DNA of 24,982 bases from a virus. Its lineage: Duplodnaviria > Heunggongvirae > Uroviricota > Caudoviricetes. The stretch lies in IMG/VR virus record IMGVR_UViG_2551306526_000003. One strand, given 5' to 3'. The translations under genes and the position numbers were made by a program. Shown piece after piece: positions 3,165 to 24,213 of the stretch. Every line of letters starts with the position of its first letter. Position 1 is the first letter of the stretch. The notes beneath the pieces were generated by a model, which did not search any database, was not told the DNA's origin, and saw only the letters and a program-made list of their open reading frames with translations.

Positions 3165-3529
3165 ATGATTGATGTCTTAGGGCCGGAGAAACGCAGACGG
3201 CGTACCACACAGGAAAAGATCGCATTGTTCAGCAGAGCTTTGAACCGGGGATGACGGTCTCCCTCGTTGCCCGGCAACATGGTGTAGCAGCCAGCCAGTT
3301 ATTTCTCTGGCGTAAGCAATACCAGGAAGGAAGTCTTACTGCTGTCGCCGCCGGAGAACAGGTTGTTCCTGCCTCTGAACTTGCTGCCGCCATGAAGCAG
3401 ATTAAAGAACTCCAGCGCCTGCTCGGCAAGAAAACGATGGAAAATGAACTCCTCAAAGAAGCCGTTGAATATGGACGGGCAAAAAAGTGGATAGCGCACG
3501 CGCCCTTATTGCCCGGGGATGGGGAGTAA
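3165..3529 (+). pseudogene. insC: IS2 orfA (insC) with an apparent 1-nt deletion: the first 29 codons (ATG 3165, [20 protein letters not shown]...) run into TGA at 3252-3254, while the remaining 92 codons (3251-3529) are in another frame
   Basis: 29 + 92 = 121 aa, the full InsC length, but the two parts are in different frames. I recall the canonical sequence as ATCGCAATTGTT where the window has atcgcattgtt (about 3219-3229). Confidence 0.6.
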
Positions 3530-4392
3530 GCTTAGTCAGCCGTTGTCTCCGGGTGTCGCGTGCGCAGTTGCACGTCATTCTCAGACGAACCGATGACTGG
3601 ATGGATGGCCGCCGCAGTCGTCACACTGATGATACGGATGTGCTTCTCCGTATACACCATGTTATCGGAGAGCTGCCCACGTATGGTTATCGTCGGGTAT
3701 GGGCGCTGCTTCGCAGACAGGCAGAACTTGATGGTATGCCTGCGATCAATGCCAAACGTGTTTACCGGATCATGCGCCAGAATGCGCTGTTGCTTGAGCG
3801 AAAACCTGCTGTACCGCCATCGAAACGGGCACATACAGGCAGAGTGGCCGTGAAAGAAAGCAATCAGCGATGGTGCTCTGACGGGTTCGAGTTCTGCTGT
3901 GATAACGGAGAGAGACTGCGTGTCACGTTCGCGCTGGACTGCTGTGATCGTGAGGCACTGCACTGGGCGGTCACTACCGGCGGCTTCAACAGTGAAACAG
4001 TACAGGACGTCATGCTGGGAGCGGTGGAACGCCGCTTCGGCAACGATCTTCCGTCGTCTCCAGTGGAGTGGCTGACGGATAATGGTTCATGCTACCGGGC
4101 TAATGAAACACGCCAGTTCGCCCGGATGTTGGGACTTGAACCGAAGAACACGGCGGTGCGGAGTCCGGAGAGTAACGGAATAGCAGAGAGCTTCGTGAAA
4201 ACGATAAAGCGTGACTACATCAGTATCATGCCCAAACCAGACGGGTTAACGGCAGCAAAGAACCTTGCAGAGGCGTTCGAGCATTATAACGAATGGCATC
4301 CGCATAGTGCGCTGGGTTATCGCTCGCCACGGGAATATCTGCGGCAGCGGGCTTGTAATGGGTTAAGTGATAACAGATGTCTGGAAATATAG
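3487..4392 (+). CDS. insD: IS2 transposase orfB (InsD), 301 aa in the -1 frame; A6G slippery heptamer a-aaa-aag at 3481-3487 for the programmed -1 frameshift that makes the InsCD fusion
   Basis: Track [26 protein letters not shown]... matches IS2 InsD; ends with the DDE region and ...[29 protein letters not shown]. Confidence 0.9.
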
Positions 4393-7216: not shown

Positions 7217-7296
7217 TGAACAAGTCCCATGTCGGCAAGCATAAGCACACAGAATATGAAGCCCGCTGCCAGAAAAATGCATTCAGTGGTTGTCAT
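7213..7296 (-). CDS. Candidate small hydrophobic single-TM peptide, 27 aa ([27 protein letters not shown]), translationally coupled on both sides
   Basis: ATG at 7296-7294 overlaps the TGA of the upstream ORF (7293-7295); its own TGA (7215-7213) overlaps the ATG of the 71-aa ORF; strongly hydrophobic core. Below the track size cut-off. Confidence 0.35.
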   Translation of the reverse strand: MTTTECIFLAAGFIFCVLMLADMGLVQ

Positions 7297-18409: not shown

Positions 18410-18435
18410 TTAGCCAGGTAACACAGTGTTATGAC

Positions 18436-18462
18436 AGCCCGCCGGTTCAGGCGGGCTTTTTT
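18436..18462 (+). terminator. Intrinsic terminator downstream of lom
   Basis: Stem AGCCCGCC-ggttca-GGCGGGCT followed by TTTTTT. Confidence 0.7.
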
Positions 18463-18473
18463 GTGGGGTGAAT

Positions 18474-21400
18474 ATGGCAGTAAAGATTTCAGGTGTACTG
18501 AAAGACGGTGCAGGTAAACCGGTACAGAACTGTACAATCCAGCTGAAAGCAAAACGTAACAGCACCACGGTGGTGGTGAACACGGTGGCCTCAGAAAATC
18601 CGGATGAAGCCGGGCGTTACAGCATGGACGTTGAGTACGGTCAGTACAGCGTTATTCTGTTGGTGGAAGGATTCCCGCCGTCACATGCCGGGACCATCAC
18701 CGTGTATGAAGATTCCCGACCCGGTACGCTGAATGATTTTCTCGGTGCCATGACGGAGGATGATGCCCGTCCGGAGGCTCTGCGCCGTTTTGAACTGATG
18801 GTGGAAGAGGTGGCGCGTAACGCGTCCGCGGTGGCACAGAACACGGCAGCCGCGAAGAAATCAGCCAGCGATGCCAGCACATCAGCCCGTGAGGCGGCAA
18901 CCCATGCGACTGATGCTGCAGATTCAGCACGTGCAGCCAGCACGTCAGCCGGACAGGCCGCTTCGTCGGCTCAGTCAGCGTCTTCCAGCGCAGGAACGGC
19001 ATCAACAAAGGCCACTGAAGCCTCAAAAAGTGCTGCCGCTGCAGAGTCCTCAAAAAGCGCGGCGGCTACCAGTGCCGGTGCGGCGAAAACGTCAGAAACG
19101 AATGCGGCAGCGTCACAACAATCAGCAGCCACTTCTGCATCCACCGCGACCACGAAAGCGTCAGAAGCTGCCACCTCAGCCCGGGATGCGTCGGCCTCAA
19201 AAGAGGCAGCGAAATCATCAGAAACGAACGCATCATCAAGTGCCAGTAGTGCAGCTTCCTCGGCAACGGCGGCAGGAAATTCCGCGAAGGCCGCAAAAAC
19301 GTCTGAGACGAATGCAGATAACAGCGCACAGGCGGCAGCAGACTCACAAACTGCATCAGCAAACTCCGCGACAGCAGCCAAAAAATCAGAAACCAACGCG
19401 AAAAAATAGCGAGGCAGCAGCAAAGAGCAGCGAAACCAACGCTAAAGCCAGCGAAACTAATGCTAAATCCAGTGAAACAAACGCGGCGAAATCTGCGGCG
19501 GACGCACTTAATTATCGCAACCAGGCGCAAGTAATTGTTGGCGATAATATCGGTCTTGGTGAAGTTGCCATGACCTGCACTGATATCTCTGTTGAGCCAT
19601 CAGGTTATATTGGATTTGTCAGGATTTACATCTCAGCGAAAGGTTATCCATCAGTAGCGTCTAGTGCCGGTGATAATCTTATTTCTGGTTATATAGTTAG
19701 ATCAGAAGTGTCAACAAAAAGATATTCCGGTCTATTTGTTGGTTCAGATACAAAATCATTGTATTCGTACATTTACAGCCAAAGTTCTGGCCCGCAATGG
19801 ATACGTCATACCCGCAGAGATGAATTAAGCCGCTTTGGTCAAAATGAATCAACAACTCGTATGTATGGTCCAACTGGTGATCGTTTCTTTGAAATCCATA
19901 CTAACGGGAGTTGGGGAGTTTATGATTCTTCTTCTGGACAATGGTCTCCGTTAGGTTTAGCCCAGGGCGGTACTGGTGGAAGAACTATCGAGCAAGCACG
20001 TGCGAACTTGCGGGTAATGTATGAGCAAAAAGCTGGCCTTGCTAATACTGACCTAAACACCCTTACCGGTGAATATTCTGGTTTCTATCAACAACCAACG
20101 AGCGCTTACGCAACAGAAGAATTAAATTACCCAATCGGTCTGGCGGGCGCTTTAATAGTGCTCCAAACGAGAGCCAACACTGCTTCTTCCTGCGTTCAGG
20201 TGTACTACCCTTATAATAATCCGGGAATTACTTATAGACGAATATATGAAGGAGGAAGCGGTACCTGGTCTGAATGGAAGAGAGATGTATCAACAGAAAG
20301 GGTTGAAGAGGGAAAAGAAACAACTTACGTATATTCTACGTATTCTTCAGGCGCACCACGCTTACAGGTTTCCAAATCTGGTTTGTGGGGTTGTCATAAT
20401 GGCACTGGCTGGTTGCCATTAGCTGTTGGGCAAGGAGGTACAGGTGCGACAACAGTAGAAGATGCGCGAAACAACTTAAGTCTTGGCGAAAGTAGCGCAG
20501 TTAAATTTAAAAACCTTACTTTAACCGAAGCGCTCGACACGACATTAGGACTGCTTACAAAAACAGGACGAGACTGGAACACGCAGCATACTGATAACAT
20601 TAATAAATTTATACCAATTGCAGGCAGTACAAACGGCCCGGCAGGTTCTATGGTTCTTGGCGGCATTCATGTTCAATTTAGTAAAAATTATGCTGTGCAG
20701 TTCGGAGGCCGCAATTCCGGTTTTTGGGGAAGAACAATTGAAAATGGAACGACGCAGGAATGGAAGAAATTACTAACAGTAGACGATCTCAATTCATCTA
20801 CCGATCTTGCTGTCAGGTCATTAACCACATCTAACCCGGTAAAATCTGGCGGAGGGCGAATTGATGTCCTTGGAAGCACGTCAGACTATAGCAAAATGGA
20901 TTGCTTTGTACGTGGGTTTGATAGCACCGGTAATTCTCTCGCGTGGGCGTTGGGTTCATCAGTCGGCGTAAGTAAGATGCTGTCGCTAAAAAATTTCTTT
21001 AGCGGAGCTGAGATACTGTTAAATGGTAATGACGGCGCGGTTCAACTCAAAACAGGTGCTGTTAACGGGGCTAAAGCGCAAGCGCTCACTATCAACAAGG
21101 ATGAGGTTAACTCAACTGTTGATTTAACTCTTACAAAACAAACAGGGACTGGAAATCGTTTTGTTTTACAGAACTTAGGTAATACAGAACTATCATTTGC
21201 CGCAAAAGTATGGGGATCAAGTGATCGACAAAACGTTTTTGAGGTTGGAACGTCTGCTGCGTATCTGTTTTATGCGCAAAAAACGTCAGCAGGCCAGTTG
21301 TTTGATGTAAATGGCGCTATTAATTGCACAACGCTGAATCAGTCATCAGACCGCGACCTTAAAGACGATATTCTCGTTATCAGCGACGCGACGAAAGCAA

Positions 21401-21780
21401 TCCGTAAAATGAACGGATACACCTACACGCTCAGGGAAAACGGGATGCCTTATGCTGGCGTTATTGCACAGGAAGTAATGGAGGCGATACCAGAAGCTGT
21501 GGGATCGTTTACTCATTACGGTGAAGAGTTGCAGGGACCAACGGTTGACGGCAATGAATTACGTGAAGAAACACGTTATCTGAATGTTGACTACGCCGCC
21601 GTGACGGGGTTACTTGTTCAGGTCGCCCGTGAAACAGATGGTCGCGTTACCGCGCTGGAAGAGGAAAACATAACGCTACGTAAAAATCTGGCAACAGCAG
21701 GCACCCGGATCAGCACTCTGGAAAATCAGGTAAGCGAACTGGTTGCACTTGTCCGGCAGTTAACAGGAAGCGAACATTGA
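18474..21780 (+). pseudogene. stf: Side tail fibre (stf) interrupted by a +1 frameshift in an A6 tract (19401-19406). Lambda Stf-like N-terminus with Ala/Ser-rich SETNA repeats, central GGTG fibre repeats, C-terminal intramolecular-chaperone domain
   Basis: Frame A 18474-19409 (MAVKISGVLKDGAGKPVQNCTIQLKAKRNSTTVVV...) stops at TAG 19407-19409; the repeat pattern continues seamlessly in frame B (…KNSEAAAKSSETNAKASETN…) to 21780. C-terminus ...SDRDLKDDILVISDATKAIRKMNGYTYTLRENGMPYAGVIAQEVMEAIPEAV... fits the S74 auto-processing chaperone domain as I recall it. Confidence 0.8.
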
Positions 21781-21829
21781 TATCCTTCAAGCCCTGAAGG
21801 AGGCTGTTCCCGGTACGTTCAGACTGTTG

Positions 21830-21960
21830 TTGGGCTGGAGATCGCAACGGAGGAAGAAAACTCGTTGCTGGAAGCCTGGAAAAAGTATCGGGTGTTGCTG
21901 AACCGTGTTAATACAACAACTGCACCGGATATTGAATGGCCAGTAGCACCTATAGGGTAA
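21830..21960 (+). pseudogene. tfa: 3' remnant (about 43 codons) of a tail-fibre assembly gene (tfa); no start codon
   Basis: ...[42 protein letters not shown] matches the conserved Tfa C-terminus; frame opens immediately after the stf stop. Confidence 0.6.
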
Positions 21961-22820
21961 ATTCGTAATGATTACCTAAATACGTTATTCTTTTGTTCAA
22001 AAAGTGATTTTGCTATAGGTAGGGAGTATGTTCTTGGATTAAGAATAAAAAATCGCCATGAAAGAGCTTCATGGCGAGTACATAAACGTACAAAATGTGA
22101 TGAAAGTAGAGTGGCGTAAGCCACTATATTAAGATATGACAATAGCGAAGAAAAGTAAATAACATTTTATGGACGTTTAATTGTTAATTATAAAAACTAG
22201 AGTGCCCGATATTGTTTATCTTGCTTTAAAATAATGTACTCAAACCAAATTTTTGAGCTAAAAGCTCAAATAATATAAATGCAATGATAATGTTTAATAA
22301 GACAATTAGCTTGCTTTGTATTTTCATTTCGGAATACTGTTAAGTAACTTTGATGACCCTAACAATAGATCGGAATTTTCTTAGAGTCAATGGTCAATGT
22401 TTTTGCTTGCAAAGCAAATGTTTTGGTGGTTATAAGTTGTCTTAATATAGTCACGCATGCAACTTGTTCCATGCGGAGATTAAAGATTGGAATATAACGC
22501 GAAGATGGAATTAAATTACATTTGCAATAACCAATTTATTATTACTCAATAATTACCGATATTATTATTGTAAATTAATCATTAGAGTGCAAAAAGAAAT
22601 GTAACGGCAAAATAAGAGGACGATAGCTGAGAAAAAAGCGTGCTTTCCCAATCTGGGGCAAATCACGTCTGAATGACACCTGAAAACAGGTGGTAGCCTC
22701 AAGAAGGCTTGGAATATTCTTCTTTAATGTTATGTAATTCATTGATTTTTCGTGTACGATTTTAAGACATTTATTCCAAGAAAAATTTTTAACTCTTTGA
22801 TTTTTCGACTCTGTATCATC

Positions 22821-22881
22821 GGTCTCGAAAACCGGAGTAGGGGCAACTCTACCGGGGGTTCAAATCCCCCTCTCTCCGCCA
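22821..22881 (+). tRNA. Orphan 3' partial copy (61 nt, anticodon loop through CCA) of tRNA-Ser(CGA) (serU-type); not a functional tRNA; likely att-site remnant
   Basis: GGTCTCGAAAACCGGAGTAGGGGCAACTCTACCGGGGGTTCAAATCCCCCTCTCTCCGCCA matches the 3' two-thirds of E. coli serU as I recall it; upstream sequence does not encode the acceptor/D-arm. Confidence 0.75.
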
Positions 22882-23465
22882 CTTTATCAATGACTTATCT
22901 CCCGACTTCCCGCCTTGCTTTTCCTAAACAGAACAATCGTAGAATATTCTTGAAGGGTTAGATCGTCACTGTTTTCTGTTCGATACTGTGACATTCAGCA
23001 CTTGATTCGCTATGGATCTGACAGGAAGGTTTTGAGCGAAAATTTGCAGTTATTCAGTTGTTTTCTTATCGGTCACCATTATTCTTTTAGACATTGATCC
23101 TACAAAGCTGCCGCAAAGTTGGTGGTGGGAACTGAAGTTGCGTAGAGAAGGGGTCAATACCCGGAGGCAAACATGGGCTGGCAAAAGTGTAGCGGTATTA
23201 GGCGCAGCTATTTAGCCTAGTTATGTTTTATGAAAACTTGATATCATATAAGTGTCTTACTTATTGGCTGTAAATAAGTTTTTCCTAAGGAATTGTTTCT
23301 TGAGTATCATTTGTAACTGTAACGGAATTTATAATCCTTTGCTTTATTGTTACGGTATTTTTTATCACACCCTATTTTTTATGTGGTTTTTTATACTGAA
23401 GTTTGGCAAAGTGAACTTTATATGCATATACTTCATCCTGGTTTCAGTTAAGTTGGGTGGATGAT

Positions 23466-24209
23466 ATGGCAACTACATGTTCAGTTATATTGATTTTGGA
23501 GTCCTTTGATGTTTATTTCGGAAAAGAGAGTGTGTTTCTGGAGAGAGGTTCATCTGTACTTGTCGACTCTAGCTCTAGAGATTTTTTCCTGACATATCCT
23601 GAAAGAGTGATAGTGGCGGATTTTGGCGCTGAGTTTATTAGTCGCTATTTGAAAGCTAATAACTTAAGGGATATTTCTGATTGTAGGGAATATCCATCTT
23701 ATTTAAAAATAAACTTTGCTGACTTCAGTTTAATTAAAGGATTAATTAGTTGGGCTAATCACTGTGCTGAATACATAGAAATTTTTGATGAGTCTATTGC
23801 TTTTACATGTCTCTCTGCATTTTCTTCTGAAAAACAATTTGGAGTATTTCTGTTTGAATGTTTGAAAAGCACAGGGGCTAAAGTTAAAACGATTATTCAT
23901 ACGGATTTATCTGCACCATGGCGTCTTAAGGATATATCATCAAGATTATATCTCAGCGAAAGTTTACTAAAGAGGAAATTGAAAGAAGAGGGGGTATCAT
24001 TCAGTAAGATCATACTTGATGAGAGGATGCAAATGGCTGAATATTTACTCAGCACTCGTTGTTATCCTATTAGTAAAGTAGCTAAGGTCTGTGGTTATGC
24101 CAGTGTTTCATACTTTACTTATGTATTTAGACGTTATTTTGGTGTTTCTCCAAGTCAATACTCTCAGAGCAGTTCAGAAAGTAAAATTCTTACTCACCAG
24201 GGAATCTGA
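23466..24209 (+). CDS. AraC/XylS-family transcriptional regulator (GadX/AppY/Rns-like subgroup), 247 aa from the SD-preceded ATG (track start 23457 is a GTG)
   Basis: C-terminal HTH signature ...ISKVAKVCGYASVSYFTYVFRRYFGVSPSQY and SLLKRKLKEEGVSFSKIILDERMQMAEYLL; AT-rich flanks. Confidence 0.8.
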   Translation: MATTCSVILILESFDVYFGKESVFLERGSSVLVDSSSRDFFLTYPERVIVADFGAEFISRYLKANNLRDISDCREYPSYLKINFADFSLIKGLISWANHCAEYIEIFDESIAFTCLSAFSSEKQFGVFLFECLKSTGAKVKTIIHTDLSAPWRLKDISSRLYLSESLLKRKLKEEGVSFSKIILDERMQMAEYLLSTRCYPISKVAKVCGYASVSYFTYVFRRYFGVSPSQYSQSSSESKILTHQGI

Positions 24210-24213
24210 TCAT

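Follow-up and report, generated by a model that had tools for sequence, protein, structure and literature searches.

The question raised by this locus is whether the side tail fibre gene of a prophage has really been cut in two or only appears so in one sequence record. In the window, that is the whole stretch of 24,982 nucleotides analyzed here, the reading frame which in all relatives runs continuously from the N-terminal anchor to the distal end of the fibre is broken by a TAG codon next to a run of six A. A preliminary description of this DNA had offered a true mutation, a slippage-prone site or a sequencing error as possible origins. The comparisons reported here favor an error over a mutation, while the slippage-prone or programmed site found no support. 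Base-calling or assembly most probably introduced the extra A into this record as an indel error, and the source organism probably carries an intact stf gene of 1,101 codons.

The break occurs in the sequence GCG AAA AAA TAG (19398-19409), within the in-frame context GCC AAA AAA TCA GAA ACC AAC GCG AAA AAA TAG, and the coordinates first given for the six A and for the end of the first frame proved correct. The upstream part of the gene (Table 1) translates to 311 aa with the C-terminus ...AAKKSETNAKK* and encodes the tail-attachment domain along with most of the Ala/Ser-rich shaft. The downstream part, which from 19402 reads ...KNSEAAAKSSETNAKASETNAKSSETN... and is open up to 21780, encodes the remaining shaft, the distal receptor-binding region, an S74 chaperone and the native stop. 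Passage from the first frame to the second requires a +1 (or -2) ribosomal shift; a -1 shift, as read from the sequence, reaches a nearby stop and not the downstream frame. When one A is removed, 18474-19409 is joined to the frame ending at 21780 and the repeat pattern continues across the junction, as the preliminary description had anticipated. The product of the resulting 1,101-codon ORF is 100% identical to WP_015364453.1, a 1,101-aa protein annotated as intact in six related genomes, and the junction is thus not a chance coincidence of frames. Compared with the intact allele of the relatives, the stf DNA of the window shows 1-4 synonymous substitutions and the one A. The break had been placed in a "SETNA repeat array", a fair name for seven motifs (aa 207-337) of which only the last three form a strict tandem; the fourth (19386-19400) immediately precedes the A-run. 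Runs of six or more A occur 17 times in the window, and such a run is by itself unremarkable.

Table 1. Features of the disrupted stf gene, its neighbors and the private differences of the window (window coordinates).
Feature	Position	Strand	Remarks
Terminase large-subunit 5' fragment fused to the 3' end of tail-tip gene J	15763..17743	+	Fusion at ~16808
lom, intact (Ail/Lom outer membrane protein)	17810..18409	+	Upstream of stf as in lambda
Intrinsic-terminator-like hairpin between lom and stf	18436..18457	+	Rho-independent terminator annotated there in mEp460
stf 5' part, frame A	18474..19409	+	311 codons and premature TAG
Region with seven SETNA motifs	19092..19485	+	21-nt tandem array of the last three at 19428-19484
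A6 run with the extra A	19401..19406	+	A5 in each homologue examined
Premature TAG, product of the frameshift	19407..19409	+	Sequence and frame-A translation
stf 3' part, +1 frame	19402..21780	+	Identical to aa 310-1101 of WP_015364453.1
R-type pyocin fibre-like segment	20059..20493	+	6cl5, aa 529-673, E=2.4e-6; weak similarity
Peptidase_S74 intramolecular chaperone domain	21346..21501	+	PF13884, aa 958-1009, E=8.6e-12
tfa (tail fibre assembly) fragment	21829..21960	+	N-terminus missing
Private difference: one A lost, AA to A (GCAATTG to GCATTG)	3224		In IS2 orfA (3165-3530)
Private difference: extra C after C9-A, CCCCCCCCCATTT to CCCCCCCCCACTTT	7499		7489-7499; in minus-strand ORF 7293-7649
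Private difference: A5 to A6	19401		Splits stf
Private difference: G-to-A	21081		Synonymous, in stf

Judged by its sequence, the split gene belongs to the lambda-type side tail fibre genes (stf) and is a single gene of ordinary make-up. This identity, already proposed from the letters of the DNA, was confirmed by a Pfam match of the restored protein to phage_tail_N, the "prophage tail fibre N-terminal" domain (PF08400; aa 1-134, E=4.5e-72, 240.8 bits for a cut-off of 26.6), and by 87% identity to lambda orf-401 over aa 1-284. The 311-aa upstream product is sufficient for the same domain match (aa 1-134, E=4.8e-73), and aa 1-94 match a "Tail fiber protein" chain of known structure (PDB 9e7m, E=2.8e-51). 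The N-terminal domain is followed by an Ala/Ser/Thr-rich shaft, by the pyocin fibre-like segment and by the S74 domain, which scores 45.6 bits for a cut-off of 22. This last domain begins with SDRDLK, in which Ser and Lys, a candidate self-cleavage dyad, are five residues apart, a spacing that is presumably the same in endosialidase and T5 pb1. NCBIfam returned no family for the intact Stf or for a distal part of 736 aa, and PGAP names an stf allele with an N-terminal deletion "pyocin knob domain-containing". The gene order, J fragment, lom and stf, is shared with lambda and with phage mEp460. To all appearances, the copy in the window is a disrupted, or mis-sequenced, member of the lambda-type Stf proteins. 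Among the window and its relatives, the stf substitutions at 20958, 21081, 21111 and 21153 are all synonymous and fall within 200 nt, a pattern that may reflect purifying selection acting on the distal fibre or a short tract acquired by recombination from another stf copy.

The gene lies in a prophage that, from its gene content, is defective and resides in an APEC O78-like E. coli host. Aligned with E. coli APEC O78 (NC_020163.1, 1523982-1548962), the window shows five differences over 24,982 vs 24,981 nt. It contains ybhC, a lambdoid prophage and the low-GC segment that comes before ybhB-bioA in the relatives, the prophage being situated between ybhC and bioA, in the region of lambda integration. 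The fusion of the terminase fragment to the end of J, common to all relatives examined, is best read as the scar of a single deletion which removed all head and tail (morphogenetic) genes. Bet and the Q antiterminator are present only as fragments, and an IS2 is inserted in the prophage. Late transcription of stf is probably poor because Q is truncated. Terminator-like hairpins are found 5' of both lom and stf, at positions annotated as terminators in mEp460, and a promoter scan returned sites no more numerous than expected by chance. Only a remnant of tfa is left downstream of the fibre gene, which may be explained by the self-chaperoning S74 end of Stf.

Other parts of the prophage are worth describing in their own right. 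Despite its inability to form virions, it has kept intact genes for an OmpC-like porin (10135-11217, minus strand), Bor (13009-13302, minus strand) and Lom (17810-18409, plus strand); accessory (moron) genes are typically kept in this way by domesticated prophage remnants. From 21960 to 24210 extends a very AT-rich stretch (GC 29-38%), almost devoid of ORFs until the low-GC gene of an AraC-family regulator (23457-24209), which is followed by IS and integrase fragments at the right prophage end. A second IS2, inserted at about 21950, is present in some relatives. A 9-bp indel at 14045-14053 (TTATCGTTT) separates the window and APEC O78 from NZ_CP082087.1 and NZ_OW848980.1. In one relative only (NZ_CP035860.1), 14 substitutions are clustered at 12240-12740 in rrrD/rzpD, apparently a tract brought in by recombination from a different lambdoid lysis cassette.

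The preliminary description had called for a comparison with intact homologues. This comparison shows that the two frames are one gene and that the sixth A is, among the sequences searched, unique to this record. A 41-mer spanning the A6 run, with a design in which a megablast match could be seeded by A6 genomes alone, had zero matches in 5,426 complete E. coli genomes, while the corresponding A5 40-mer, used as a control, was found at 1,299 places in 990 of these genomes. A pattern accepting either length retrieved A5 in 21/21 metagenome contigs and 37/37 IMG/VR contigs, with a long ORF through the site in most of these 58 contigs. Altogether, A6 was seen at 0 of about 1,357 homologous sites, and the length of the run is not polymorphic among strains, each other copy examined being A5. 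With a 91-nt query, no identical copy was obtained among the 1,828 genomes with a match (best 90/91), and the close homologues listed among the matches all measure 3,312 nt, vs 3,313 in the window. No entry for the truncated 311-aa product exists in a collection of 153 billion gene positions. A scan of GTDB species-representative genomes, in which neither A5 nor A6 was found, is uninformative on the allele.

The extra A is not the only peculiarity of this record. Four private differences, and no more, set the window apart from the seven relatives used for comparison (Table 1): three are single-base indels and the fourth is a synonymous SNP. This total (4 in 25 kb) is similar to the divergence between relatives. 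IS2 orfA, DUF1317 and stf, all intact in near-identical relatives, are each altered by one of the indels. The deletion at 3224 cuts the IS2 orfA product short after 20 residues, and the insertion at 7499 fuses DUF1317 to DUF1382 into a single 118-aa ORF, for which a look-up of the exact product was empty. Like the 41-mer at 19401, those at 3224 (any IS2 copy included) and 21081 had no match in the 5,426 complete E. coli genomes. The 41-mer at 7499 had none in complete genomes either, a weaker result obtained without a positive control and with a C9 tract possibly masked by the BLAST low-complexity filter; in NZ_OW848980.1 this tract is C8, with a PGAP frameshift flag. Among themselves, the relatives differ by 10-24 substitutions, the 9-bp indel, an IS2 insertion, a 1,276-bp deletion and one single-base indel, in the C9 tract. 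The spectrum of the window differs from that of the relatives in Fisher's test (p=0.033 for core sites, 0.004 for all sites). Assuming that ~10% of real mutations are indels, the probability of 3 or more indels in 4 events is P=0.004.

This private spectrum of three gene-breaking single-base indels points to an error of base-calling or assembly over a genuine null mutation, frame-breaking singleton indels in otherwise invariant genes being a classic error signature. With the flow chemistry of 454 and Ion Torrent, homopolymer over-calls and under-calls are typical errors, as is a spurious base which echoes an adjacent long homopolymer. The three indels of the window look like such miscalls (an over-call, an under-call and a long-homopolymer echo), although two of the three are located outside long homopolymers, which, like the total number of private differences, runs counter to this reading. 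It has also been proposed that BLAST-validated singleton frameshifts are expected to be sequencing errors and not genuine mutations (Antonov et al., 2013; PMC3711429). The comparisons show which gene this is, that it differs by one base, that this base was seen nowhere else and that the private differences have a skewed spectrum; that the cause is technical is what we infer. The single A gained in the record (A5 to A6) shifts the frame at codon 311 and gives rise to the TAG, in what is very unlikely to be a programmed event. A genuine mutation is the main alternative and, in our judgment, a less likely but still plausible one: a recent and private +1 replication slippage from A5 to A6, for which the A-run is a natural hotspot, would have made stf a pseudogene in one strain. 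Its product would be a 311-aa N-terminal fragment lacking the receptor-binding part, and would have no consequence in a prophage that cannot build tails. Since the prophage has no head or tail genes and retains Q only in part, selection is unlikely to act on stf and a null allele would cost nothing. Decay of stf also has precedents, in the frameshift of lambda PaPa and in relatives of this very prophage, where it occurred independently: NZ_CP129279.1 and five similar genomes share a 1,276-bp deletion (window 18304-19570) reaching from the 3' end of lom into stf, and in strain PigCaeca_1 an IS1 is inserted in stf. The unique substitution at 21081 further indicates that the window is a distinct sequence and not a mere copy of APEC O78. 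Against a real mutation, the A6 allele was seen nowhere else, and single-base indels that break otherwise invariant genes make up three of the four private changes. Real mutation would be very unlikely to produce this spectrum where repair is proficient (P about 0.004), and it remains unlikely even for a mismatch-repair mutator (P about 0.03-0.08).

All readings other than error and real mutation are, even taken together, very improbable. It could be argued that the A-run is functional, with programmed +1 frameshifting at AAA_AAA_UAG, transcriptional slippage or phase variation giving rise to both a short and a full-length fibre. Both frames are indeed long and their junction is seamless, and a stop codon in the A site beside lysine codons can in principle favor low-level +1 slippage. 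Such recoding is nevertheless highly doubtful: the two-frame layout exists in no homologue, all ~1,357 sites having A5 and one ORF, and the run comprises only 6 bases. By comparison, transcriptional slippage sites are 8-9 bases or longer and programmed sites have conserved motifs of 7 nt or more (PMC1088944, PMC3711429). No Shine-Dalgarno-like stimulator was found upstream of the A-run, the RNA around the site folds no better than shuffled sequence does (z=0.18), and an Rfam scan of 18300-22200 gave no match. No support was thus found for programmed frameshifting, and a phase-variable contingency locus was rejected on the invariant length of the tract, A5 in every other copy examined. If A6 were nevertheless real, AAA_AAA_UAG might, in what we regard as a remote scenario, allow low-level +1 ribosomal slippage (through re-pairing of tRNA-Lys and slow reading of the stop) or slippage of RNA polymerase; the relic prophage would then harbor a leaky "pseudo-pseudogene" whose main product is a 311-aa fragment of anchor and shaft, with full-length fibre made only in traces. 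Least credible of all is that the two frames are separate genes, one for an N-terminal anchor protein and the other for a distal fibre protein. This could be suggested by the 736-aa "pyocin knob domain-containing S74 family peptidase" annotated by PGAP in the genomes with the lom-stf deletion (GZM7 group), starting at an ATG equivalent to window 19570, but that ORF is a remnant of the 1,276-bp deletion. The downstream frame has no start codon between the TAG and 19570, and in every intact relative, as in the viable phage mEp460, one CDS crosses the site with identical residues, ...KKSETNAKNSEAAAK... The homologues therefore refute this last reading.

An indel error in the record remains the preferred explanation, and whether error or mutation, the finding is an ordinary one of little biological weight, in a well-known type of gene. 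For annotation, the two ORFs should be treated as one frameshifted stf gene and not as two genes. Moreover, three frame-breaking single-base indels in 25 kb suggest that similar errors may be numerous throughout the source assembly. Were the mutation real, it would represent one more routine step of decay in a prophage already unable to make virions. Its sole conceivable effect would be on incoming lambdoid phages acquiring the tail-fibre DNA of defective prophages by recombination (PMC3945230).

Several known systems help to situate this locus. With its +1 change of frame at a stop codon beside an A-run, the site recalls prfB-type +1 frameshifting and slippage on A/T-runs, but it differs from them by its lack of conservation, of a CUU_UGA-like motif and of an upstream Shine-Dalgarno stimulator, and by having only 6 A. 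The closest intact counterpart is that of APEC O78, which has the same prophage at the same chromosomal site as the window. There, A5 instead of A6 leaves one 1,101-codon ORF (NC_020163.1, 1542455-1545760) encoding WP_015364453.1, a "prophage tail fiber N-terminal domain-containing protein" also present in other strains.

At its distal end, Stf can be compared with fibres and spikes such as the endosialidase of phage K1F and the L-shaped fibre protein pb1 of T5, which likewise have a C-terminal Peptidase_S74 domain, and fibres of T5-like phages, e.g., slur09 and BB1, are 40-63% identical to its distal part. In contrast to these proteins, the N-terminal anchor of the window Stf is lambda-type, and its self-cleavage is only predicted.

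The parallel that first comes to mind is lambda PaPa, in which a frameshift in stf abolishes the side fibres (PMC12617516, PMC3945230) and separates orf-401 from orf-314 (Hendrix and Duda, 1992, as cited in PMC12617516). The two cases share the same gene family, the position after J and lom, and a single-base frameshift yielding two ORFs. However, as the preliminary description had correctly noted, the break is positioned differently: the lambda lesion falls where the 401 codons of orf-401 end, in a segment particular to lambda and without an aligned counterpart in the window Stf, whereas that of the window is at codon 311, in the SETNA shaft, the homology to lambda stopping at aa 284. The lambda lesion has been verified experimentally and is fixed in laboratory stocks. 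The tips also differ, that of lambda Stf being Tfa-dependent and T4 gp37-like, while the window Stf has the S74 chaperone instead.

The nearest phage homologue is found in mEp460, a viable lambdoid phage (NC_019716 gp20, 1,202 aa), where one CDS downstream of J and lom encodes it. Identity to the window Stf is 81% over aa 1-515, with no residue changed through the frameshift site, and 90% over the last 425 aa, S74 domain included. The central part differs by mosaic exchange, and the window stf is accordingly a standard mosaic side tail fibre gene. The phage is complete and plaque-forming, with one continuous reading frame across the site where the window has its sixth A.
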